37,583 bases of DNA. It comes from Escherichia phage 520873. A model generated the notes under the pieces. That model was given only the letters and a program-made list of their open reading frames with translations. It had not been told where the DNA came from and made no database searches. The translations under genes were made by a program, and so were the position numbers. Shown piece by piece: positions 6,055 to 37,583 of this stretch. How positions within the stretch are numbered: position 1 is the stretch's first letter; the number at the start of each line of letters is the position of its first letter. The stretch is from the sequence record NC_049344.1; one strand, 5' to 3'.

Positions 6055-6516
6055 GTGGCAACGGAGTACATCAGAGACTGGCAACAACCACGCCATGCAG
6101 TCGGTCGCGAGGGGACGGGGGAGTCTGTCCGTCCCTCCCTTCTTTCTTCCTGGCTGGATGCCTACCGGGCAGAGAACGAGCGCCGCCAGGAAATGGCTGA
6201 TGCGGCGTTCTCCGCCGCACCGCTGGGCAATCTGATTAATAAAAGCCTGGACGCACAGGAAAAACAGGACAAAGCCATCACACTGGCAAGAGAAGCCAGA
6301 AAGCAGGCACGCGGTGCGGTGGATGAAGCAATTGCCGCACTGCGTCTGCTGCCGTCCTATCTGCGTGATCCGCTTATCCGCCATCTCTCTTTCCTGCGCA
6401 AAAACAGGAATCTGACCGCCAGAAAGGCAAAAAGAACCAGCAGGCAGAACGCTATGCGAGCGGAACCCTGCGCAAAATATTCGAACGTCTGGCCCGCACC
6501 GACCGTCGCTGGCTGA
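6055..6516 (+). CDS. Hypothetical early protein (153 aa); could instead be the 5' part of gene A if another indel is present
   Basis: ORF in track; the gene A frame is also open upstream of 6561 back to 6369. Confidence 0.3.
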   Translation: MATEYIRDWQQPRHAVGREGTGESVRPSLLSSWLDAYRAENERRQEMADAAFSAAPLGNLINKSLDAQEKQDKAITLAREARKQARGAVDEAIAALRLLPSYLRDPLIRHLSFLRKNRNLTARKAKRTSRQNAMRAEPCAKYSNVWPAPTVAG

Positions 6517-6560
6517 CTCCGGGTTATCGCTCCCTTGCCGGACGTGAACGTCTGGACGAT

Positions 6561-8875
6561 TTGCTGTACCTGCCACAGCTCAACAAGCACCAGATACAGA
6601 CGCTGGCCGTCATGACAGCGGCGATGTTCAGCAGCACCTTCGAAAAACTCTGCGATGACTTTGGCGCGATCGACGGCGAGCTGACCATGGATATAACGCT
6701 GAAGGCGTATCAGATGCTGGCCCGCATGGCGTTACATCTGCAGACAGTGCCGCCGCATTATGACGCACTGACAACAGACAAAGACCGGAAGAACGAACCG
6801 GACACGGAACTGCTGCCGGGTGCAATCCTCCGCCTGACCTGTGCGGACTGGTGGAAACGCAAATTGTGGCTTTTACGTTGCGAATGGAGAGAGGAACAAC
6901 TCCGCGCTGCCTGTCTGGTTTCCAGAAAAACATCCCCCTATCTGAGTCAGGACGCATTAAGTGAATTTCGCGCACAGCGCGAGAAAACACGCGATTTCCT
7001 GAAAAGTTTCATGCTGGAAAATGAAGACGGGTTCACGATTGATCTCGAGACGGTGTATTACGCGGGAGTAAGTAACCCGGTCCACCGTAAGGCAGAAATG
7101 ATGGCCACCATGAAGGGGCTGGAACTTCTGGCCGAAGCCCGTGGCGACAAAGCGGTATTTCTGACCGTTACCTGCCCGTCAAAATATCACGCAACAACGG
7201 AGAGCGGTCATCCGAATCCCAAATGGAACAGCACCACCATGCGCGATTCCAGCGATTACCTGGTTAACACTTTTTTAAGGCAGTCCGCAAAAAACTGAAC
7301 CGCGACGGCCTGCGCTGGTATGGCATCCGCACGGTGGAGCCACACCATGACGGCACCGTGCACTGGCACATGATGGTCTTTGCACATCCTGAAGAAATCG
7401 ACAGCATCGTGGACATCACCCGTGATATTGCCATTCGCGAAGACCGCCACGAGCTGGGCAATGACATAACTCCGCGCTTTAAGGCAGAGTACGTCGACGG
7501 TTCGAAAGGTACGCCGACCAGCTACATCGCCACCTACATCGGAAAGAACCTGGACAGCCGCGCCGTGGATGGCATTGACCCGAAAACAGGCAAGCCACGC
7601 GTTGATCACGAAACCGGAAAATCAATGGCCGAGAGCGTGGAACGCGCCATCGGCTGGGCGCGCCTTCACCGCGTCCGCCAGTTCCAGTTCTTTGGTATCC
7701 CCTCCCGTCAGGTATGGCGTGAACTCCGCCGCCTTGCCAGTCAGATGGCCCGCAGCCCGGAAGGTCCACAACGTCTGGAAAATGACGCAATGGATGCGGT
7801 ACTCGCTGCCGCTGATGCCGGGTGTTTTGCCACCTACATTGAGAAACAGGGTGGCGTACTTGTTCCACGCAAGGATTACCTGATTCGCACCGCCTACGAC
7901 CTCGCAGAAGAGCTGAACGATTACGGCGAGCAAAGCGTACAGATTTACGGGATCTGGTCGCCACAAATCGGGGAATCTTCCCGCGTGTGCACGCACCCGG
8001 ATAACTGGAAGCTGGTAAGACGTAAACCGGAAGCGGAAGACAGCGCCCGCGAAAATGGTTTTGACCTTCAGGGCGGCCCTGCCGCCCCTTGGACTCGTGG
8101 CAATAACTGTCCCCGTGTACAGGAAACGGACAACAACGGGACAGAACAGCCGGAAGAACGGCCAGCACCGTGGCCGCAGCTTCCTGACGGCGTTGACGTG
8201 AACGAATGGATGCGCTCACTGAAACGGCACGAACGCCGGGCGCTGATGCGTTCGCTTCGTGACAAACAGGCAAAAAACAGCAGCGATGAAATGCAGAACT
8301 GGACACAGAGCCGCAAACAGCCACAGCCTTTGCCTGATAACCACGAGTTACTCGCTAAAGAATGGCGGGAGTCTGCTGAATCTCTCGGCCTGCATATTGG
8401 TGAACAGCAGATGCAGCACCTGTTACGGGGCGGCAGTCTGTACGTTGACGGCAGCATCATTGCACCGCAGGGATTTGAAATTGTACGCAAACCGGATACC
8501 CGCCCGGACAGCCGAATCACGCAGCTCTGGCAACGCCTGAGCCGTAATCACGGCGTAAGCAGCACGGAGATCCGCCATAACCCGGTCGCCAGCTATCTGG
8601 AACAGCTGGGGGCATCAGACCCTGAAGCCGCCGCACGCCTGGCATCCACACTTCAGCAAGACCAGAACACCATGAAAACCCCCGTTACCGTGCTTTCTGA
8701 CATGCTGCGCGCCATCCGTGACGCAGAGCACGCACAGAGAATCAGTGAAACCACTGAACGCGCCCACCGCAAAGCAGACCTGCTGCGGGGTAGCCTGACC
8801 AGTGGAAACAAAAAACAGACAGAAACGGGACTCACAAATCCCGTAAATGAGCAAAAAACGTGCCGCGATATATGA
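6561..8875 (+). CDS. A: Replication initiation endonuclease gpA (HUH rolling-circle initiator); apparent frameshift at the T6 run 7271-7276
   Basis: Two ORFs (6561..7298, 7334..8875) totalling ~760 aa, similar to P2 gpA (761 aa); HUH motif EPHHDGTVHWHMMVF; the second frame is open back to 7268 and joins the first at aacacTTTTTTaagg. Confidence 0.8.
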
Positions 8876-8951
8876 AGCACGCACAAAACAGGCAAAAGAG
8901 GGATTTCAGAATCCCGTAAACGGTTAATTAATCAACATAAGGAAAATCGAC

Positions 8952-9911
8952 ATGAAAATTTGTATCGACGACGGCTCCACCAACATCAAGCTGGCATGGA
9001 CTGAGAACGGCGAACGCCGCAACGCCATCAGCCCGAACAGCTTCAAGTCGGAATGGTCTGCGCCGTTCGGTGGCACGCAGCCCGCGAACTACATGCTTGA
9101 TGGCGTGCGCTATGGTTTTGATCCGGTCAGCGATCGCTTTATCCAGACGACCGACACGCAATACCAGTACAGCGATGTGAATGTCATTGCCATTCATCAC
9201 GCGCTGGTCAAATCAGGCATCACGCCACAGGAGGTGGATGTGGTTGTCACCCTGCCACTGAGCGAGTATTTCGACACAAACGCACAGCCGGACATGGCCA
9301 ACATCAACCGCAAAAAAGCAAACGTTATGCGCCCGGTGGAATACCAGAACGGCGAAGCATTCACTATCCGTAATGTACGGGTTATGCCTGAATCCATTCC
9401 GGCTGGCTTTAAAGCACTGGCTGACATGAGTCCGTTTGAATCCCTGCTGATTGTGGATTTAGGTGGAACCACGCTGGATGTGGCAAAGGTTCAGGGACAA
9501 CTGGCAGGTATCAGCCAGGTGTTTTGCGATCCACACGTAGGCGTTTCCCTGATGGCTGATGCAGTACTGTCGGTGATGGCCACTAACGGTATGCGTACCA
9601 GTCACCACATCGCCAATACCATTATCGAACATCGCCATGATGAAGCCTGGCTGCGCCAGCACATCCACAATGACGCGCATTACGCCAGCCTGATGGCGGT
9701 TATTCGTGAAAAGGAAGAAACACTGAAACAACGCGTGATCCGCGCGCTGGCGGGTTTTTCGGGTTACGGGCGGGTGATGGTTGTCGGTGGCGGGGCGGAG
9801 ATTGTGGCACCCGCTATCCGCGAAGCCTGCGGAGTTAATGCGACTTTCATCGCGGACGGGGTGCCACAGTTTGCTCTGGTTAATGGGCTGTACGCAATGG
9901 ACAAGGAGTAA
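8952..9911 (+). CDS. parM: ParM/StbA-family actin-like segregation ATPase
   Basis: IDDGSTNIKLAW, ISPNSFKSEW, YSDVNVIAIHHALVKSG, MPESIPAGFKAL, LLIVDLGGTTLDVAKVQGQLAGISQVF, VMVVGGGAEIV, ALVNGLYAM align block-for-block with remembered plasmid R1 ParM; RBS AAGGA upstream. Confidence 0.85.
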   Translation: MKICIDDGSTNIKLAWTENGERRNAISPNSFKSEWSAPFGGTQPANYMLDGVRYGFDPVSDRFIQTTDTQYQYSDVNVIAIHHALVKSGITPQEVDVVVTLPLSEYFDTNAQPDMANINRKKANVMRPVEYQNGEAFTIRNVRVMPESIPAGFKALADMSPFESLLIVDLGGTTLDVAKVQGQLAGISQVFCDPHVGVSLMADAVLSVMATNGMRTSHHIANTIIEHRHDEAWLRQHIHNDAHYASLMAVIREKEETLKQRVIRALAGFSGYGRVMVVGGGAEIVAPAIREACGVNATFIADGVPQFALVNGLYAMDKE

Positions 9912-9915
9912 ACCA

Positions 9916-10227
9916 ATGACGACACCAACCAGGCGGATAAGTTTCTATCTGAAGCCTGCGGCCGTCAAGAACGAAAGCGAAGCATGCGCCTGGCTGGACA
10001 GCCTTACACCGGAAGCCCGCAAAAGCGGCCAACGCGTGGCTTTTCTGGCCGGGCTGGCACTTCTGAAAATGAATCCGGCAGAGGCTTACCGACTGGCCGC
10101 ATGGGCTGATGATGAGATGTTACCTGTGACACAAATCAGCTCAAAAAAGTTTGAAGCACAGTCTGCACCAGTGGCTAAGATAACCAGCCAGATGGCTGGG
10201 AATATCCGGGCGTTATTTCCTGAGTAA
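9916..10227 (+). CDS. parR: ParR-like centromere-binding adaptor
   Basis: RRISFYLKP...LDSLTPEARKSGQRVAFLAGLALL...RALFPE parallels remembered R1 ParR (RRTIAFKLNP...LDSIPQGERSRLNRAALTAGLAL...RSLFPKE); RBS AAGGAG, starts 5 nt after the parM stop. Confidence 0.75.
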   Translation: MTTPTRRISFYLKPAAVKNESEACAWLDSLTPEARKSGQRVAFLAGLALLKMNPAEAYRLAAWADDEMLPVTQISSKKFEAQSAPVAKITSQMAGNIRALFPE

Positions 10228-10355
10228 AAGCATCTGCGCGAAAAATGCTCACGTTTATAGAAACAGTATCATTCCATTTGGCACACTTACTTCAATAATC
10301 GATCTGTTAAACAAATAGATTGTCTATTATCTATCGATTAAAACGATCAATTATC

Positions 10356-10383
10356 TTGACAGTAATGTGCCTTTTTGTAAGAT
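10356..10383 (+). promoter_or_regulatory. Sigma-70-like promoter (TTGACA-N16-TGnTAAGAT) in an AT-rich GATC/ATCGAT-rich region
   Basis: TTGACA at 10356-10361, extended -10 TGTAAGAT at 10376-10383. Confidence 0.4.
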
Positions 10384-10389
10384 CGTTCG

Positions 10390-10576
10390 CATTGTGAGCG
10401 ACAAGATAATTGCGCAGCATTGTCCATGCAAAACGCCCCAATAGCAGCAACTATTGGGGCGTAAAACTCGGTCGGACTCACTTAACCTGATATGCGTGCC
10501 TTCCGAAGTAGTTCAAAATGTGCGTCGTATATTTTATTGCTTACACGCACCTCTGTAAAGGCACGCATATTTTTCC
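10390..10576 (+). promoter_or_regulatory. Structured ~185-nt leader or small RNA ending in a terminator-like hairpin
   Basis: Perfect 11-bp hairpin CGCCCCAATAG/CTATTGGGGCG (10434-10461); nested hairpin with perfect 13-bp outer stem ATATGCGTGCCTT/AAGGCACGCATAT (10490-10570) followed by T5 (10571-10575), 16 nt upstream of the next start codon. Confidence 0.3.
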
Positions 10577-10591
10577 TATGAGGTAAATAAA

Positions 10592-10861
10592 GTGCGGGCT
10601 AAAACAGGTATTTGCAAGAACCCTCATCGTTATAACCCAACATTTCTGTCTCTCCCTGAATATCAAGGACAAGAAGGTCGGCACAAATGCGCTGCCTGTG
10701 CTTTTGAGCTAGGCATAAAAGATGCGCTTGAAGGACGCGCTATGGCTCAGAATGATTTAGTTTTAGCTAACATTCCGTTTAGCCAGGCTGGAACTGTAAG
10801 GCACAGAGATGCCTATGAAGCATATGTTCGTGGTTGGCGATTAATACACAGCAACAATTGA
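10592..10861 (+). CDS. Hypothetical small Cys/His-containing protein (89 aa), function unknown
   Basis: GTG start with GAGG RBS; product contains CKNPH...HKCAAC; own promoter and terminator. Confidence 0.5.
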   Translation: MRAKTGICKNPHRYNPTFLSLPEYQGQEGRHKCAACAFELGIKDALEGRAMAQNDLVLANIPFSQAGTVRHRDAYEAYVRGWRLIHSNN

Positions 10862-10870
10862 TACTTTTGA

Positions 10871-10894
10871 AGCGCCGATAAGGCGCTTTTTTTG
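10871..10894 (+). terminator. Rho-independent terminator
   Basis: AGCGCC-gataa-GGCGCT followed by T7. Confidence 0.55.
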
Positions 10895-11347
10895 TTTGCA
10901 CGATAGTGCACAAGTTTGCACAATTTTTTTGAACGACTTTTTGTACTTCCGGCCCGCATGGCGGCTGGATCCGTCAAGGATCCGTGCGTGCACAAAAAAA
11001 CGCGTTTTTTCTGCGCGCAGGTGACGGGGGAACAGCCCGCGTTTCAGGGGGTAAATAGCGCTCCCTTAACGATGTCGCAGCGACACGACAGAATGGCCGT
11101 ATTTCTCACGCTGAGCGTGAAAAATACGTGAGGGATTCTGATTTGATGGGGTGAAAGGTAAGGCCGTCAAAATCGCACTGAGGCGGCGAGAACATGCAGT
11201 CAACGCGGTGGGATTGCGTAAGAGTCTGACCGTCGATGGTGGCGATAAACTGGAAGGCGTCGTGAAATTATCTGACTGATACAGGAGCTGGAGAGTCGGG
11301 GCATAAATTTTTTATGCCCCGGCGAAGCAGCAGACAAGCGAAGCGCG

Positions 11348-12388
11348 TCAGGATGTGGGCTGGATGTCTAACAGTGCGTAAGGGTTAAAGCGGATCACCT
11401 CTTCGCCAAGCCAGTCATTGATGTGCTTCATGGCCTCCATGACGGGCATCAGCTCGTTAATTGCGTAAACCCGCGCGGCCTTCTCCACATCACCAAACGC
11501 ACTTTTTTCACCCGGCATCGCCCCCATCAGTTGCGGCGGAACGCGGTGCGCAGCCAGCACATCATCACGGGATGCCGCCTTAACATTCATGAACTCATCC
11601 TTTGCGGTGATCTGCTGGAACGGCAAAATTTGCACCCCCTCTTTGCCCCCGTTGGGCGCATGAATGAGCACGTTTTTAAACGCACCACCACCACGCGCAC
11701 CCTGTAGCGTTTCTTTCAGGGAGTCCATGCTTTCGCGGTTTACCTGCGCTGCACCGATGTAGATGATGCACCCGGCGTGGGATCCGTTGTCGTAATACAG
11801 TTTTCTGAACATGTCCGCCGAATGAGACAGGCTGGCCGAGAGTAATGCGCCGAGATATTCCGGCATGCCGTAGATTTCCTGGTTAATGTCAGGATTCATC
11901 AGGTGACACACTTTGCCAGGGCGAAACTGAAACGCGTCCTTGCCATCCTGCACATACCACCATGATTCAAGATCGCTTCCGCGTCGCATGTATTTCGCCA
12001 GGGCGTGCCGTAATTTAAGCGGTTCGCCGAGCATATTGCTTCGAAGCTCAAGAAATGCGTTACCGAACACAAACCAGTCCAGCGCCGAGAAATCCTGCCG
12101 GGAAAGCAGCGGGTGCGGGATGTAGCAACCGAGTAATACATTGCGCTTAAAGTAAAGCGCAGACTGATGCCAGGACGTTTGCCGGGCAGCTCTTGCCAGA
12201 CCGTACCAGTCCACCGGGGTTTCATACCACCGACCGTTATCAGCACAGTACATATTGTCCAGCAGGTCATGCCCGGTCAGGCGGTAAGGACCATCAAATG
12301 TGAATGCACTGAGCGACGATTCTTTCCTGAGCGCATCAGCGAGATCAATGCGTGAACTCATGCGCAATTTTTTATTTTTTCTGCTCAT
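11348..12388 (-). CDS. Q: Portal protein gpQ
   Basis: 346-aa ORF matching P2 gpQ in size and position, immediately downstream of the terminase gene. Confidence 0.9.
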   Translation of the reverse strand: MSRKNKKLRMSSRIDLADALRKESSLSAFTFDGPYRLTGHDLLDNMYCADNGRWYETPVDWYGLARAARQTSWHQSALYFKRNVLLGCYIPHPLLSRQDFSALDWFVFGNAFLELRSNMLGEPLKLRHALAKYMRRGSDLESWWYVQDGKDAFQFRPGKVCHLMNPDINQEIYGMPEYLGALLSASLSHSADMFRKLYYDNGSHAGCIIYIGAAQVNRESMDSLKETLQGARGGGAFKNVLIHAPNGGKEGVQILPFQQITAKDEFMNVKAASRDDVLAAHRVPPQLMGAMPGEKSAFGDVEKAARVYAINELMPVMEAMKHINDWLGEEVIRFNPYALLDIQPTS

Positions 12389-14139
12389 CAGAACTCCATA
12401 ACCGTGAAACGCTCGTTTTCTCCTTCGCCGCCAATCGGTTCGTTAATGACAGCAAGCATGGTTGCCCACGCAAGGTCGCCGTGGCTGATCCCCCTCGCAC
12501 GGTCCGTTTCGTAAGTGATAAAGCCGCCCGGTGTTTTCACCTTACGCACGGCGTTAAAGGCCGCGACCAGCTCGCGTTCGGCGCGATCGTATTCCCACCG
12601 CCCGGCACGCATTATTTGCAGCATTTTCAGTACCAGCGACCGTTTTGATGACAGCGTGAAGGTGTACGGAATAGCGGCAGGGAAAAACCGTTTCACTATC
12701 TGATAAACAGCCTCCCCGTTCCCGCCCGTCACATCAATGCCGATGTGTTCCACGTTGTAGCGACACGTGAACTCTTCAATGACTCTGGCCTGTTCTTCAA
12801 ACTCCAGCCCCTGAACGCGTCGCGTCTCCACCGTTCGAAAACGGCCACCAGGAACAGACGGAGGAACCACCACGGACACAGCGCCGCTGTCGCCGTTGCC
12901 ACTGCTGCCGTTTGCGTCATACCCAATCCATACCGGACGATTCCCCATCGGGCGGGGAGCAAAAGGTTTCCAGTCTTTCCAGTCGTCGTATCCGTCAACG
13001 CCGCAGCCAATCAGGATATTCAGGTTAAATGCCGATTCCCCTTCGCGGACAAACTCACACATATAGAGATTGAGGAACTCGTCTTCGGTGTTTTCATCAC
13101 GAATTTCGTCGATATCGGTGTGTTTCCAGCCGTGATTAACCACATCTTCCAGCGTGACAATTTGCCGCCACGTCCGGTCAGGGCAGATAAGCCCGTTATG
13201 CAGCGTTTTCCAGTCCACAGAAAAACGCTGGCGTTTATGCGAGGCCTTTTTCTCGTTCCAGCGGTCGCCGTTCCAGTAGGCGTATGCCTCGTGCGTTTCG
13301 GTGGATGGCGTGGAGAAGTAGGTGCGCCGCAGTCCGCTGAGGGTTGCCATAGCGCCAGCCACCTTGCGCAGTTCAGCAAAGCGACTGACCCAGAAAAATT
13401 CATCAAAATAAAAATTGCCCGTATAGGACTGTGCCGACGCAGCAGAAGTGCCGAGAAAATGCAGCTCTGCGCCGTTGGAGAGGATGATTTTATCGCCCCC
13501 TTTCAGCTCCACATCAACTTCAGCCGCGGCCTTCTGAATAATGCTTTTAAACTGGAACGCCTGACGACGCGACGCAGACAAAAAAATCTGGTTACGCTGG
13601 TAAGGTTGCGCCACATCGTCACGCAGCGCCATCAGCAGTGCTTCCTGTGCAAAATACCAGGTCGCCCCAATCTGTCGGGATTTCAGGATCATCCTGTTAC
13701 GTATCCCGGCTTCCCTGCAAAGGGTCAGGGAGTCAAACCAGCCCCGCTGATGCCACTCCAGCCTGCTGATGATTTTTTCCCGCAGTGCGGCAATCTGTTC
13801 CGGCGTGAAATGATTTTTGAGTTTTTTCGCCCGGCCTTTCTTTCCTGCGGCCATCACATCCGGCTGGCCATCATGCAGCTTTTTAAGCTGCCGGGTCAGC
13901 AGGTCTATTTCCTTAAAGTCACCGCCTGTTTTATTCTGTTTTTCAGTAAGCTGGATGAGGCGCGCATCAATGGACTGCGTGACACGCTGCACGGGTGGCG
14001 TTTCATCCCACTGGTCGCGTTTTTTCCACGCATAAATCGTGTTCGGGTTTATTCCCATCAGACGTGATATTTCTGCGGGCGGATAACCCTGCCAGTAAAG
14101 TTGCCGCGCACGCTGGCGCACAAAAGCGTCCTGAATCAT
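12388..14139 (-). CDS. P: Terminase large subunit gpP
   Basis: 583-aa ORF, P2 gpP-like size and position, divergent from the capsid operon. Confidence 0.9.
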   Translation of the reverse strand: MIQDAFVRQRARQLYWQGYPPAEISRLMGINPNTIYAWKKRDQWDETPPVQRVTQSIDARLIQLTEKQNKTGGDFKEIDLLTRQLKKLHDGQPDVMAAGKKGRAKKLKNHFTPEQIAALREKIISRLEWHQRGWFDSLTLCREAGIRNRMILKSRQIGATWYFAQEALLMALRDDVAQPYQRNQIFLSASRRQAFQFKSIIQKAAAEVDVELKGGDKIILSNGAELHFLGTSAASAQSYTGNFYFDEFFWVSRFAELRKVAGAMATLSGLRRTYFSTPSTETHEAYAYWNGDRWNEKKASHKRQRFSVDWKTLHNGLICPDRTWRQIVTLEDVVNHGWKHTDIDEIRDENTEDEFLNLYMCEFVREGESAFNLNILIGCGVDGYDDWKDWKPFAPRPMGNRPVWIGYDANGSSGNGDSGAVSVVVPPSVPGGRFRTVETRRVQGLEFEEQARVIEEFTCRYNVEHIGIDVTGGNGEAVYQIVKRFFPAAIPYTFTLSSKRSLVLKMLQIMRAGRWEYDRAERELVAAFNAVRKVKTPGGFITYETDRARGISHGDLAWATMLAVINEPIGGEGENERFTVMEF

Positions 14140-22551: not shown

Positions 22552-24537
22552 ATGAGTACCACAACACGAAAATTTAAAACCGTTATCACCGATACGGGTG
22601 CAAAAAAATTAGCTCAGGCAGCCGCGCCAGATGGTAAGCCTGTCCGCCTGACTCATATGGCCGTGGGCGACGGTGGCGGCACGTTGCCCACACCAGACAG
22701 TAAGCAGACCCGTCTGGTGCATGAGGTGTGGCGACATACTGTTAATCGCGTCATCCTGGACGCAACACATCAGAACCGCATTATTGCGGAGCTGGTTATT
22801 CCTCCTGAAACGGGCGGATTCTGGATCCGGGAAATTGGTGTATTTGATGAGCACGGCGATTTAATCGCGGTGGGAAATACTGCCGAAAGTTACAAGCCAG
22901 CCGTTGCCGAAGGGTCCGGTCGTGCACAAACATTTCGCACCATTCTGACCGTATCCAGCACTGCCACCGTGGCGCTTACCGTGGATAACACCATGGTGAT
23001 GGCCACAGTGGATTACGTGGATGACAAACTGAAAGAGCATGAACAGTCACGACGTCACCCGGACGCCTCGCTGACCGCAAAAGGCTTTGTTCAACTCAGT
23101 AGCGCCACTAACAGCGTGTCTGAAACGCAGGCTGCAACGCCGAAAGCAGTAAAGGCCGCGTATGATCTTGCTAACGGTAAATATACTGCGCAGGATGCCA
23201 GCACGACGCGAAAAGGCCTTGTCCAGCTCAGTAGCGCCACCAACAGCACGTCTGAAACGCAGGCTGCAACGCCGAAAGCAGTAAAGGCCGCGTATGACCT
23301 TGCTAACGCAAAATATACCGCTCAGGACGCCACGACGGCACAAAAAGGGATAGTCCAGCTCAGTAGTGCCACCAACAGCACGTCTGAAACACTGGCCGCG
23401 ACATCAAAAGCGGTTAAGGCGGTAATGGATGAAACGAACAAGAAAGCGCCCTTAAACAGTCCTGCGCTGACCGGAACGCCAACAACGCCAACTGCGCGAC
23501 AGGGAACGAATAATACCCAAATCGCAAGCACGGCTTTCGTTATGGCTGCGATTGCCGCCCTTGTAGATTCGTCACCTGACGCACTGAATACGCTGAACGA
23601 GTTAGCGGCGGCGCTGGGAAACGACCCGAATTTTGCGACCACCATGACTAACGCGCTTGCGGGTAAGCAACCGAAAGATGCCACCCTGACGGCGCTGGCC
23701 GGGCTTGCTACTGCGGCAGACAGGTTTCCGTATTTTACGGGGAATGATGTTGCCAGCCTGGCAACCCTGACAAAAGTCGGACGGGATATTCTGGCTAAAG
23801 CGACCGTTACTGCCGTTATCGAATACCTCGGTTTACGAGAACTCGGCACAAGCGGGGAGAAAATACCGTTACTCAGTACAGCGAATACCTGGACCAATCG
23901 ACAAACATTCAGCGGTGGCCTTTCTGGGGAACTGTCCGGCAATGCCGCTACTGCAACAAAGCTGAAAACAGCACGAAAAATTGCTGGAGTTGGTTTTGAT
24001 GGTTCTAGCGATATTTCAATTAGTGCCAAAAATGTCAATGCATTTGCACTCCGACAAACAGGTAATACTGTTAATGGTGATACATCCGTTGGATGGAATT
24101 GGGATAGTGGTGCATATAACGCCCTGATTGGTGGTGCATCTGCATTAATTCTTCACTTTAATATAAATGCTGGTAGCTGTCCTGCCGTACAATTCCGTGT
24201 GAATTATAAAAATGGTGGCATTTCCTACAGGTCGGCTCGTGATGGTTATGGGTTTGAATTAGGTTGGTCAGATTTCTATACCACGACACGAAAACCTTCA
24301 GCGGGAGATGTTGGTGCATATACGCGGGCAGAATGTAACTCAAGGTTTATTACAGGTATTCGCCTTGGCGGTCTGTCATCTGTTCAGACATGGAATGGTC
24401 CCGGCTGGTCTGACAGGTCAGGTTATGTCGTTACGGGTTCAGTTAACGGAAACCGTGATGAATTAATTGATACAACACAGGCAAGGCCAATTCAGTATTG
24501 CATTAATGGGACGTGGTATAACGCGGGGAGTATTTAA
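22552..24537 (+). CDS. H: Tail fibre protein gpH (constant N-terminal part plus currently expressed variable C-terminal part)
   Basis: 661-aa ORF; three 44-aa collar repeats; C-terminal portion lies inside the invertible segment. Confidence 0.85.
   Translation: MSTTTRKFKTVITDTGAKKLAQAAAPDGKPVRLTHMAVGDGGGTLPTPDSKQTRLVHEVWRHTVNRVILDATHQNRIIAELVIPPETGGFWIREIGVFDEHGDLIAVGNTAESYKPAVAEGSGRAQTFRTILTVSSTATVALTVDNTMVMATVDYVDDKLKEHEQSRRHPDASLTAKGFVQLSSATNSVSETQAATPKAVKAAYDLANGKYTAQDASTTRKGLVQLSSATNSTSETQAATPKAVKAAYDLANAKYTAQDATTAQKGIVQLSSATNSTSETLAATSKAVKAVMDETNKKAPLNSPALTGTPTTPTARQGTNNTQIASTAFVMAAIAALVDSSPDALNTLNELAAALGNDPNFATTMTNALAGKQPKDATLTALAGLATAADRFPYFTGNDVASLATLTKVGRDILAKATVTAVIEYLGLRELGTSGEKIPLLSTANTWTNRQTFSGGLSGELSGNAATATKLKTARKIAGVGFDGSSDISISAKNVNAFALRQTGNTVNGDTSVGWNWDSGAYNALIGGASALILHFNINAGSCPAVQFRVNYKNGGISYRSARDGYGFELGWSDFYTTTRKPSAGDVGAYTRAECNSRFITGIRLGGLSSVQTWNGPGWSDRSGYVVTGSVNGNRDELIDTTQARPIQYCINGTWYNAGSI
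23062..23457 (+). repeat. Three tandem ~132-bp coding repeats within H
   Basis: Near-identical DNA units encoding KG[FLI]VQLSSATNSxSETQAATPKAVKAAYDLAN. Confidence 0.6.
23816..23841. other. Invertase crossover site, left (gix/cix-like), inside H
   Basis: TTATCGAATACCTCGGTTTACGAGAA; matches the reverse complement of the right site at 19 of 26 positions. Confidence 0.5.
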
Positions 24538-26609: not shown

Positions 26610-27209
26610 GTGCTGATTGGCTATGTAAGGGTATCAACAAATGACCAGAATACAGACCTGCAACGAAACGCTCTTGTTTGTGCAGGATGTGAACAAATAT
26701 TTGAAGATAAATTAAGCGGGACAAAGACAGACCGACCGGGATTAAAACGCGCTTTAAAGCGCCTTCAAAAAGGTGACACGCTGGTTGTCTGGAAACTGGA
26801 TCGCCTCGGGCGAAGCATGAAACATCTGATTTCTCTTGTCGGGGAACTACGGGAGCTAGGGATTAATTTTCGCAGTCTGACCGACAGCATAGACACATCT
26901 TCTCCAATGGGGCGTTTTTTCTTCCACGTGATGGGTGCCCTGGCTGAAATGGAACGTGAATTAATTGTTGAACGTACACTGGCCGGGCTGGCGGCAGCGC
27001 GCGCAAGGGGGCGCACAGGCGGACGTCGACCGAAGCTGACAAAAGAACAGCATGAGCAAATAGCAAGGCTAATCAAAAACGGGCACGACAGAAAACAACT
27101 GGCAATAATTTACGGCATTGGCACATCGACGATTTATCGTTATCACCCTGTAGGCGATATACAGACTGAAGAAACAACCGGGCAGACTCAGGAAAATGAA
27201 AACCGCTAA
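26610..27209 (+). CDS. Serine DNA invertase, Gin/Hin/Cin/Pin family
   Basis: GTG start gives MLIGYVRVSTNDQNTDLQRNAL...; C-terminal HTH (GTSTIYRY); sits directly beside the crossover site. Confidence 0.85.
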   Translation: MLIGYVRVSTNDQNTDLQRNALVCAGCEQIFEDKLSGTKTDRPGLKRALKRLQKGDTLVVWKLDRLGRSMKHLISLVGELRELGINFRSLTDSIDTSSPMGRFFFHVMGALAEMERELIVERTLAGLAAARARGRTGGRRPKLTKEQHEQIARLIKNGHDRKQLAIIYGIGTSTIYRYHPVGDIQTEETTGQTQENENR

Positions 27210-31125: not shown

Positions 31126-31638
31126 TCAGCCAAGCCCAAGCGCGGAACGGATGCGATCGGGCACAATGTCCTTGCCGTCCTTCCGGTAAATGAAGTTCAG
31201 CAGGTCAATCTCCCACAACGGGCGATCGTTAACACTCAGCTTGTAGTAGGTGTTTTTAATGGCGTAAGTGTGTGATGTGGCTTCGCCCTGTTTGGCTTCC
31301 CCCATATCAATTTCCGTCACACGTCCGCGCATTTCGACTTCATACAGGTCGCTTTCTGCATCGGTGTAGTATTCACCCGCAAAACGCAGCAGCGTGCCGT
31401 CAATCGTGCCGCCATACTTAAGGAACAGCTCACGAACTGCGCCCCCCATGACAAAGCTCGCATCAAGCGCGGAGTCGTCCAGACCGAGATCAATACTTAC
31501 CGCACCCATCATGCCACCACCCCGGTAGCTGTCGGTTTTGCGCGTCAGCTTAGGCAGAGTGACGGACGTCACCTTACCCACTTCGTTTTCACCATCCACA
31601 AACAGCGTAAAAAAGCGAAGATGTTTTGGTACAGCCAT
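31126..31638 (-). CDS. FII: Tail tube protein gpFII
   Basis: 170-aa ORF, P2 gpFII size and position. Confidence 0.85.
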   Translation of the reverse strand: MAVPKHLRFFTLFVDGENEVGKVTSVTLPKLTRKTDSYRGGGMMGAVSIDLGLDDSALDASFVMGGAVRELFLKYGGTIDGTLLRFAGEYYTDAESDLYEVEMRGRVTEIDMGEAKQGEATSHTYAIKNTYYKLSVNDRPLWEIDLLNFIYRKDGKDIVPDRIRSALGLG

Positions 31639-31858
31639 CAGACACCTCCCAGCACCGCAAATGCGGGACCAAAGAATTCATCAGTAAACGACTGGTAAAG
31701 CTCCATGTCTTCCAGTGGCGGAACGGGCGTATATTTGTAGCGAATACGCACGCGCCCCTGACGTAAATTCGTGGTGCCGTTATCCACCACGTCATACCAG
31801 CACGACGCCCCAATCAGTTTCCCGGCAGTAACCAGTGAATCCAGTTTTGCCCTGATGG

Positions 31859-33812
<1,954 letters not shown>

Positions 33813-34938
33813 TGATGGCACTGATAACATCTTTCACGTTCGCAGGCGTCAGTGGACTGTCGATGGTTTCAAACTGCGCTTCCGCAATTGAATCAGCCAG
33901 CACCTGTGCGGTTCGGGTATACACCTCAAAGATGTAGGCGTTCGTTTCCGGTGTGCGGTTGCCCCAGAAGCGGAACCCGTTGCGACGAATAATGGTCGTG
34001 ATTTCTTTGTTGTTGAGGCTGTTGGCATCACTGTCTTCGGCCTGCAACGACCAGAACACATGCCTGGACATCCCCAGCACATTTTTAACCGGAACGTTGG
34101 ACAGCGATTTGTGCCAGCCCTGCTCATGGTCAATGTACGCACGAAGGCCGCACGCATAGGCAGGCGCGGGGAACGTTTCGTTTTTGCCACTTTTCGGGTT
34201 GTAGGCGATGAAGTCCGGCCATAAGAGCATCACCTCACGTTCGTTGAATTTCTGGCGGTAGGTAATCGCCTCAGCCATCGTGTTACAGCCGTGACATGAG
34301 GCATACACAAACGCGCGCAGTTTACCCGCAATCACGCACAGGGATTTTGTTACCGCCTCCGTATCCAGCTCCGGCGCGGCCAGAATACGCGGACGGTATC
34401 CGATGCTTTCATCCTGCTCTGCAACAAGCAGCGCATACATCCCCGTATAGCTGCCGTCAGATTCAGAACCACCGATAACCAGTTGATCCTGCGTTTTTCC
34501 GTCTTCTTCTTTGTGTTCAGCCACGCGAACGACGATCACCTTTGTGCTCACCTGGTCTGCGATGGCCTTAAGCGCACGATAAAGCGTCCCCGTTGTTCCG
34601 CATTTTCCCAGCACGTCATTGACGCGGGTCAGCAGTGTGGGCTTGTTCAGCGGGAACAGCTCCGCATCCGCATCATCCGCCGTTGCCACGATACCGATAA
34701 CACTGGAATCAACATCATTAATCGCTGTTACCAGGTCGGTACTTTCCGTAACACGGGCACCATGAAAACGAGTTTCACTCATAGCTTCAGCCCCTTGTAT
34801 CCGTTAAATGATTCGGCAACAATCATCACCCACCACGCGCGTAATCTCACCCCTGCGCCGTTCTCCCGCCACGGCGACAACAAAAAGCAGTAACCCCCTC
34901 CGCACGCACATGCGACCATGCCGCACAGGGAGGGAAAG

Positions 34939-37025: not shown

Positions 37026-37286
37026 ATGTTTCGTTGTCCGCTTTGTGGCGCATCTGCCCGTATCCGCACCAGTCGTTCGGAAAATGATTCAGATACCGTG
37101 CGGAAAAAATATTACCAGTGTAACAACCTGGAATGCGGCGTATGCTTCTCAACACTGGAGGCTTTCCATAAATTCACATCGAAACACGCCCCCGGCGTTC
37201 ACTCTTCAGAGGGCATCCCGTGGAATGAGCTGCCAGCTTCGCACAGGGGAAACAACCAAATGAGTTTGCCCTTACCTCAGAATTAA
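37026..37286 (+). CDS. ogr: Ogr/Delta-family zinc-finger late transcription activator
   Basis: MFRCPLCGASARIRTSR...YYQCNNLECGVCF matches the remembered P2 Ogr Cys pattern (MFHCPLC...ARTSR...HQCQNVNCSATF); RBS AAGGGAGG. Confidence 0.75.
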   Translation: MFRCPLCGASARIRTSRSENDSDTVRKKYYQCNNLECGVCFSTLEAFHKFTSKHAPGVHSSEGIPWNELPASHRGNNQMSLPLPQN

Positions 37287-37375: not shown

Positions 37376-37558
37376 GTGGAAAGGCCCCGGAAAACATTTC
37401 TGTTTAACCGAGGCCCTGACCATCTAACCTTAGCAAGTGATAGGTTAGCGCCTCCCCAAAAAAGGAGCAAGCGCTATGTCGCAAAAATCGCTTATGGCCA
37501 TCACGTTCTGCGTGACGGTAATCCTCATCATCTGGATGCTGCACGGTTCGCTGTGTGA
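37376..37558 (+). CDS. Possible mok-like overlapping reading frame of a hok locus
   Basis: ORF overlapping the hok-like ORF in another frame, as in hok/mok/sok loci. Confidence 0.3.
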   Translation: MERPRKTFLFNRGPDHLTLASDRLAPPQKRSKRYVAKIAYGHHVLRDGNPHHLDAARFAV

Positions 37559-37583
37559 AATACGGATGAGCTTCTGGGGAGCG
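37476..37583 (+). CDS. Hok/Gef-family type I toxin (partial, runs off window)
   Basis: RBS AAGGAG; MSQKSLMAITFCVTVILIIWMLHGSLCEIR has the Hok TM helix and conserved SLCEIR motif. Confidence 0.5.
   Translation, partial: MSQKSLMAITFCVTVILIIWMLHGSLCEIRMSFWGA

Follow-up and report, generated by a model that had tools for sequence, protein, structure and literature searches.

Why does a phage that integrates into the bacterial chromosome carry a DNA segregation system of plasmid type? The question is raised by Escherichia phage 520873 (NC_049344.1), of which a stretch of 37,583 nucleotides, referred to here as the window, was analysed in full. Two adjacent genes on its + strand, at 8952-9911 and 9916-10227, lie between the replication gene A, which ends at 8875, and the portal gene, which extends from 11348, an interval that in P2 reads A-orf91-tin-old-cos. 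An earlier note on this DNA had taken them for a full-length ParM and a ParR, forming a type II partition module inside an integrative P2-like prophage at the place of the P2 exclusion genes old and tin, and the protein families, the gene order and an integrase gene agree with that view. On balance, and with moderate confidence, we conclude that the locus is an intact type II (ParMRC) segregation cassette, fixed in the replication region of P88-like phages, which would segregate or position circular, gpA-replicated extrachromosomal phage DNA rather than serve routine lysogeny as a plasmid.

The product of parM (8952-9911), an actin-like segregation ATPase of 319 amino acids, contains both halves of the actin fold found in type II partition ATPases, with matches to Pfam StbA_N over residues 1-157 (2.4e-82) and to the ParM C-terminal domain over residues 159-316 (1.1e-68), in addition to matches in PHROGs. 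It aligns from end to end with the structure of ParM from plasmid R1 (1mwk; E=1.2e-92, 46% identity), and the blocks IDDGSTNIKL, MPESIPAG, DLGGTTLD and GGGAE are unchanged between the two proteins. The nucleotide motifs are also identical to those of R1 ParM, namely phosphate-1 (DDGSTN), phosphate-2 (DLGGTT), adenosine (GGGA) and the PES of the catalytic region. A search of NCBIfam with ParM gave only sub-threshold, uninformative matches. When related loci were compared in 80 viral contigs, ParM was 99-100% identical at the protein level while the DNA differed by several per cent, and the open reading frames (ORFs) of the module were intact in the great majority of loci. The mean ratio of non-synonymous to synonymous substitution rates (dN/dS) is 0.05 over 69 distinct alleles, which shows that purifying selection on parM is strong.

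Directly 3' of parM, with its ATG four nucleotides past the parM stop, parR (9916-10227) encodes a centromere-binding adaptor of 103 amino acids that matches PF10784 (Plasmid_stab_B; 1.3e-23) and PHROG 2515, 'partition protein' (3e-59), so that the family searches of both ORFs returned ParM/StbA and ParR homology. A single-sequence search of the PDB with ParR found no match. A profile made from 25 family members placed the ParR of pB171 par2 (StbB, 2JD3) first among solved structures (E=0.0048, residues 9-74), at low sequence similarity, and this match supports a predicted ribbon-helix-helix (RHH) N-terminal domain at about residues 6-71, as is found in type II adaptors. The predicted layout continues with a linker of variable sequence (66-92) and closes with a conserved C-terminal tail ending in NIRALFPE; an AlphaFold model of the monomer, based on an alignment of 25 sequences, likewise has a helix-helix core, a disordered linker and a low-confidence C-terminal helix at 86-100, with a pLDDT (predicted local distance difference test) of 57.

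ParR is more variable than ParM, with at least three allele classes in the 80 contigs, and its variation is unevenly spread. The first 14 residues (MTTPTRRISFYLKP), which correspond to the DNA-contacting strand of RHH ParR proteins, do not vary among alleles otherwise 54-99% identical. dN/dS is 0.12 in the N-terminal and helical core, 0.64 in linker residues 66-92 and 0.04 in the tail, whose motif NI(R/Q)A(L/F)FPE is conserved across alleles and is common to the closest plasmid relative, the IncFIA/FIC ParR (...NNIKNLFPDDE). Such a regional pattern is the layout that would be expected of a working adaptor, in which a flexible linker joins a DNA-binding domain to a tail that binds the motor; by analogy with R1, the tail would bind ParM. 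The earlier note had described both proteins as matching their R1 counterparts block for block, which holds for ParM over its full length, but ParR belongs to the same Pfam family with a looser resemblance to R1-type ParR (26% identity), being shorter (103 against 116 amino acids) and having a different C-terminal tail (NIRALFPE against ...KKNAMKLIN).

A candidate centromere lies immediately upstream of parM. A significant pair of 39-nt direct repeats, at 8809-8847 and 8882-8920, holds two 20-bp palindromes 73 bp apart, which we propose as parC. Site 1, ACGGGAC-TCACAA-ATCCCGT (CGGG-N10-CCCG; 8825-8844), falls within the final codons of gene A, at -127 relative to the parM ATG, and is also counted in an inverted repeat, and site 2, GAGGGAT-TTCAGA-ATCCCGT (8898-8917), is intergenic, at -54. 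The family consensus of both is ACGGGAT-N6-ATCCCGT (GGG-N10-CCC), and with up to two mismatches the motif occurs in the 37.6-kb window just at these two sites. In 79 related loci the arms of the palindromes are conserved and the central six bases vary, as might be expected of a site bound by a dimer. Of the two regions that the earlier note had proposed for ParR binding, 8805-8950 holds this repeat pair, whereas 10290-10390 was ruled out, as it is inside a cargo cassette common to two of 80 relatives.

The same type of palindrome recurs in distant phages. P2-like prophages of Plesiomonas and Hafnia, whose ParM is 62-63% identical and whose ParR N-terminus is of the same type as in the window (TRRISFYL / TRRVSFYL), have GGG-N10-CCC palindromes at -132/-60 and -129/-56 from the parM ATG; in Hafnia an extra ORF stands between gene A and parM, and the palindromes remain beside parM. 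Serratia and Enterobacter prophages have a different ParR N-terminus (NRKISFYLKPAHSRAD) and no GGG-N10-CCC palindromes, but instead a long inverted repeat with GAAATAGAAAAAT-type arms, and the palindromes are also absent from R1-type and IncFIA plasmid loci. Palindrome type therefore covaries with ParR N-terminal type, in five lineages only, which argues for the palindromes as candidate ParR sites. Within the P88 family no association was found between ParR allele class and palindrome sequence. A tandem-repeat search near parM detected no iterons of the R1 kind, of which R1 parC has ten, and R1-type parC gave no match to the region upstream of parM. One weak, A-rich match of this region to the reverse strand of an IncFIA/FIC plasmid scored 31 against a shuffle maximum of 28 and was not relied on. 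In the second ParMR type, that of Serratia and Enterobacter (L089, 5800-6000; L092, 4800-5000), the GAAATAGAAAAAT-type arms are about 30-36 bp apart, and the prophages carry extra cargo (HicAB, KAP NTPase) downstream of ParMR.

Upstream, the cassette is closely tied to gene A, which has the same orientation. Neither a sigma-70 consensus promoter nor a + strand terminator was found between gene A and parM in the window, P88, Plesiomonas or Hafnia, and because no such signal separates the two genes, co-expression of parMR with the early replication operon appears most likely. A ATTAATCAA motif, followed by the parM ribosome-binding site AAGGAA, was read directly at 8927-8944 (+ strand); it stands at a similar distance from the parM ATG in the Plesiomonas and Hafnia loci and may be a weak -10-like element. 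Gene A itself (6055-8875, + strand; Pfam Phage_GPA) encodes an HUH rolling-circle replication endonuclease of the P88 type, a single coding sequence of 940 amino acids in RefSeq (WP_126125615.1). In the window it is split into ORFs at 6561-7298 and 7334-8875, with two gap openings between the versions, an apparent frameshift that is probably due to assembly indels in the window. Alignment to the annotated P2 ori nick site places the probable replication origin, where gpA would nick, inside gene A at 8073-8110 (+ strand), about 740 bp upstream of the candidate parC. The surroundings of this origin (8073-8146, about 60 nt) are the sole part of gene A that is 85-90% identical in P2-like phages of Klebsiella, Salmonella (Fels-2, SEN8) and Yersinia.

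Downstream, the boundary is sharp. Similarity to P88 and other phages ends at 10227, the parR stop; the following 10228-10896, a variable cargo slot outside the partition module, is common to only two of the 80 related loci, and common sequence resumes at about 10897. The cassette is thus not equivalent to swappable cargo of the old/tin type, since it is fixed beside gene A in one orientation and the variable slot starts only after the parR stop. In the cargo slot of the window, promoter-like sites face each other (+10356-10383 and -10559-10531), and there are a GC-rich hairpin (10433-10462) and an unannotated ORF of 89 amino acids (10592-10861; PHROG 3941, unknown function), a layout that suggests an antisense-RNA-regulated gene; neither Rfam nor PADLOC gave a match in this slot. 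A PADLOC scan of ParM, ParR and the two downstream ORFs also returned no match.

The module is far from rare. The 1586-bp cassette region was found in 1304 of 5426 complete E. coli genomes (24%), contiguous with gene A in 1223 genomes, and up to three or four module copies coexist in one genome. Its 1452 genomic places are chromosomal in 1450 cases and on plasmids in two. It also occurs in 12 phage records, including P88, Citrobacter phage phiSM, P884B11, Chuche and PhiR44_2, and these 12 are exactly all the phage records with a P88-type gene A. In P88 and phiSM it is the same cassette at the same position, with ParM 99.4-99.7% identical; the window DNA is 95-96% identical to P88 from the end of gene A to the parR stop and 92% across gene A. 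The window copy differs in its rare downstream cargo at 10228-10896 and in one deviant base-pair pattern in palindrome 2, and otherwise in nothing essential. The surprise that the earlier note attached to a partition module on an integrated prophage therefore does not survive the survey of P2-like prophages for which it had called.

Nor is the cassette new to the literature. It is the known parMR of P88-like phages, annotated by the Prokaryotic Genome Annotation Pipeline as ParM and 'plasmid partitioning/stability family protein', and both the observation and the episomal hypothesis are already in print: Pfeifer et al. (2021), who counted the replication genes of P88 as plasmid-like, and Rousset et al. 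(2022; PMC9122126) noted the cassette of P88-like phages and proposed an episomal state. The phiSM paper just lists it as a 'fitness' gene and the P88 paper leaves it unmentioned. To the question of whether such cargo is common and already characterised, which the earlier note had posed, the answer is a divided one: it is common, annotated and noted in two papers, but we found no experimental work on it in the literature. What is new here is the parC candidate, the domain-wise selection pattern of ParR, the boundary between fixed cassette and variable slot, and the presence of two ParMRC types in the same gpA-Q slot of distant P2-like phages.

Extrachromosomal copies were sought in PLSDB, which gave seven matches. 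One is a complete phage-sized circle, five belong to replicons between 228 kb and 1.4 Mb in size, and the last is a record of 26.8 kb that is matched in part. The circle, NZ_CP148288.1, is a complete circular phage genome of 34,461 bp filed as a plasmid, and an identical phage is integrated in another strain. 'Escherichia phage 503458' (CP025874) was considered as an episome and ruled out, being a linear, frameshifted, IS100-bearing fragment without integrase. Its RefSeq record (NC_049341.1, L084), the exemplar of Xuanwuvirus xv503458, is a linear 31-kb prophage piece with heavily frameshifted genes and is neither a complete nor a viable phage genome; its IS100 insertion is the same as that of the window, described below.

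The association with gene A reaches beyond E. coli. Four ParM homologues of 54-63% identity have a readable context (Plesiomonas, Serratia, Hafnia and Enterobacter), and all four are flanked by a Phage_GPA gene on one side and a portal gene on the other. The prophages concerned are P2-like, with portal and terminase proteins only 30-46% identical to those of the window. The best plasmid ParMs are 40-52% identical to the phage protein, and homologues of about 50% identity were found in an integrative and conjugative element (ICE) and in an integrated plasmid. The ParM of the P1-like phage-plasmid D6 (StbA), also borne by a tailed phage, is 47.8% identical and no closer than plasmid ParMs, and D6 differs in being a true phage-plasmid of 91 kb. 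In a neighbour-joining tree of ParM, computed without bootstraps, phage-borne proteins fall into two groups, the Serratia/Enterobacter group being equally close to an IncFIA plasmid ParM (60%) and to the E. coli group. A single monophyletic clade of phage ParM is not supported by this unbootstrapped tree, and we therefore claim repeated or ancient residence at the slot, by at least two ParMR/parC types, rather than one clade.

Among known systems, the parMRC (parA) locus of plasmids R1 and R100 has the same gene order, parC, parM, parR, with cis repeats directly upstream of parM. It differs in that R1-type parC is an A/C-rich run of short direct repeats, whereas the phage candidate consists of the two palindromes and has no embedded consensus promoter, and in that the host replicon of the cassette is an integrative phage. 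The closest functional precedent, by analogy, would be srpMRC of the SXT/R391 ICEs, an actin-type partition system that likewise resides in a normally integrated element. It stabilises R391, and its target is a circular form whose replication depends on an HUH-type enzyme of the rolling-circle kind. Its centromere, upstream of the M gene, comprises a few repeats, both direct and inverted, and the system is expressed only upon activation of the element, which also has a toxin-antitoxin (Carraro et al. 2015, PMC4489591). SrpM and SrpR are distant from R1 ParM and ParR, unlike the phage cassette, a close relative of the R1 family; the host of srpMRC is an ICE, and its function has been shown experimentally.

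The prophage is of the P2 family, P88-like, genus Xuanwuvirus, with the annotated P2 gene order int-C-cox...A / Q-P / O-N-M-L..., tail genes and ogr. The window matches the chromosome of strain 510016, an enterotoxigenic E. coli (NZ_CP025851.1), from which it differs by 28 gap openings and one mismatch; judging from the sequences, these are probably assembly indels, that is, long-read errors in the window version. On the - strand, the integrase gene was annotated at 1039-2039, the portal gene Q at 11348-12388 and the terminase gene P at 12388-14139; the P2 cos sequence, sought between parR and Q with up to four mismatches, was not found. A direct repeat of 124 bp marks the attachment (att) sites at the prophage ends, one copy lying at 810-932 of the window and the other outside it (L001, 40573-40696), where it covers the last 55 nt at the 3' end of tRNA-Leu(taa), a gene of the leuZ-cysT-glyW cluster. 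The integrase and the tRNA insertion proposed by the earlier note are thus both real, but the tRNA itself is just beyond the window, which contains no tRNA gene; across the whole window, no Rfam family reached its gathering threshold.

Several further features concern the state of this prophage. IS100 (istA/istB, 31945-33746) interrupts the tail sheath gene, leaving fragments at 31638-31868 and 33799-34782, and this copy is probably defective for virion production as a result. At the right end, beside ogr (37026-37286), a gene for a Hok/Gef family toxin is cut by the window end (37476-37583; L001, 39489-39629). This gene is also present in the circular copy NZ_CP148288.1, so that both of the classical stability loci of R1, parMRC and hok/sok, have homologues in the phage. 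In the tail-fibre region, two neighbouring stretches (23076-23288 and 23207-23420) share about 85% identity, and a gene for a DNA invertase is close by (regions 23076-23420 and 26610-27209), a layout typical of an invertible host-range switch.

How would such a cassette work in an integrating phage? An episomal or extrachromosomal form of the phage is the leading hypothesis for its target. In the mechanism that we favour, the prophage would normally be integrated and parMR expressed together with the early replication operon. ParR dimers would bind the palindromes of the candidate parC, and the ParR tail would capture growing ParM-ATP filaments, which, as in R1, would push parC-bearing DNA molecules apart. 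The cassette would act on the circular genomes produced by gpA rolling-circle replication, after infection and before integration, after excision or during lytic growth, and copies would be spread to both daughter cells or through the cell. Besides the identity of the proteins, the selection pattern, the ParR architecture and the conserved position of the candidate parC, this proposal is supported by the fixed association with the replication gene, the occurrence of the module at the same slot in distant phages and the existence of the circular form NZ_CP148288.1.

Several points weigh against this proposal. Two candidate sites are far below the ten iterons of R1 parC, the left arm of site 2 in the window (GAGGGAT) departs from the family consensus, and the palindromes of the P88 family also score as minus-strand terminator-like hairpins, although those of Plesiomonas do not. 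The AlphaFold model of ParR is of low confidence. The cassette may also have a weak, autoregulated promoter of non-consensus sequence, located between the palindromes or behind them, in which case it could be expressed in the lysogen, and in the window copy, carried by an IS100-damaged prophage, it may be idle. Finally, establishment, maintenance after excision and lytic growth may each be the main setting of its action. A broader version, which we consider possible but doubtful, is that ParMRC, instead of being plasmid cargo, is an old and integral part of the replication module in several P2-family lineages and gives the phage a regulated, segregating extrachromosomal phase, ICE-like or as a carrier state between integration and lysis, the segregated units being gpA rolling-circle circles.

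An alternative is that P88-like phages have a dual lifestyle, in which lysogeny as a stable low-copy plasmid is an option beside integration and ParMRC, together with hok, is the stability apparatus. This is the hypothesis stated by both Pfeifer et al. (2021) and Rousset et al. (2022), and it would fit a cassette that is complete and conserved, a Hok/Gef gene at the far end of both the prophage and the circular copy, and a 34,461-bp circle that was deposited as a plasmid while an identical phage is integrated elsewhere. We nevertheless regard it as unlikely. The integrase and the att site are retained, the window copy is integrated at tRNA-Leu and 1450 of 1452 places are chromosomal, which is not the picture of a normally autonomous extrachromosomal prophage. 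No theta-type, copy-controlled replicon such as plasmids have was found among the window genes by Pfam and annotation, the sole initiator seen being the P2-type gpA HUH endonuclease. Only one of the seven PLSDB matches is a complete phage-sized circle, and this contig could equally have arisen by spontaneous induction in some cells of the culture; the seemingly extrachromosomal 'phage 503458' is the linear, frameshifted fragment with IS100 described above. A role confined to the lytic cycle, in which ParM filaments would position or disperse replicating circles and have no part in inheritance, appears distinctly unlikely. P2-type replication yields monomeric circles, the substrate of P2 packaging, and the cassette adjoins gene A and the ori in the same orientation with no promoter or terminator signals between, all of which would suit such a cytoskeleton. 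There is also a precedent by analogy in AlpC/AlpA/alpS of the Corynebacterium glutamicum prophage CGP3, an actin-like protein and a DNA-binding adaptor that act on excised, replicating phage DNA (Donovan 2015; Forde 2017; PMC4446434, PMC5539076) and are needed for efficient CGP3 replication (PMC4446434), although AlpAC belongs to another actin-like family with another adaptor, in a Gram-positive host and not at the gpA-Q locus. Against a purely lytic role, P2 and about three quarters of P2-like phages do without the cassette (PMC9122126), which is therefore not essential for lytic growth, and the co-carried hok points to inheritance rather than lysis.

The locus is a hotspot of defence genes (PMC9122126), and the prophage ParR, with or without ParM, could be imagined to disturb incoming related phages, satellites or plasmids in their partition or replication, so that the module would belong with the defence cargo of the gpA-Q slot. 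The allelic diversity of ParR, its fast-evolving linker and the coexistence of up to three or four module copies in one genome could be read in this way. We consider such a conflict or incompatibility function very improbable. ParMR lacks both the match to a known family in PADLOC and the variable presence of the defence systems in this hotspot, being fixed in its lineage on the conserved side of the boundary. Interference by ParR alone would leave the extreme conservation of a catalytically intact ParM unexplained, and neither the DNA-contacting ParR N-terminus nor the palindromes diversify with the ParR allele. Hardly any weight is left for a functionless plasmid remnant carried as a passive hitch-hiker. 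The IS100 damage to the prophage copy might suggest decay, but a parM dN/dS of 0.05 over 69 alleles, ORFs intact in the great majority of 80 loci and retention of the cassette at the same slot in phages from five genera speak against it, and the selection data effectively refute this explanation.

A segregation machine in an integrating phage is thus present in about one quarter of complete E. coli genomes. If, as we favour, it stabilises or distributes circles that are excised or not yet integrated, it would affect the efficiency with which prophages are established and persist. This would also bear on the classification of prophages as 'integrative' or 'plasmid' and on how circular phage contigs in assemblies are read. 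Should the broader version hold as well, the line between integrative prophage and phage-plasmid would be blurred for about one quarter of the P2-like phages of E. coli. The candidate centromere and the two ParR/parC types make the question of function directly testable.

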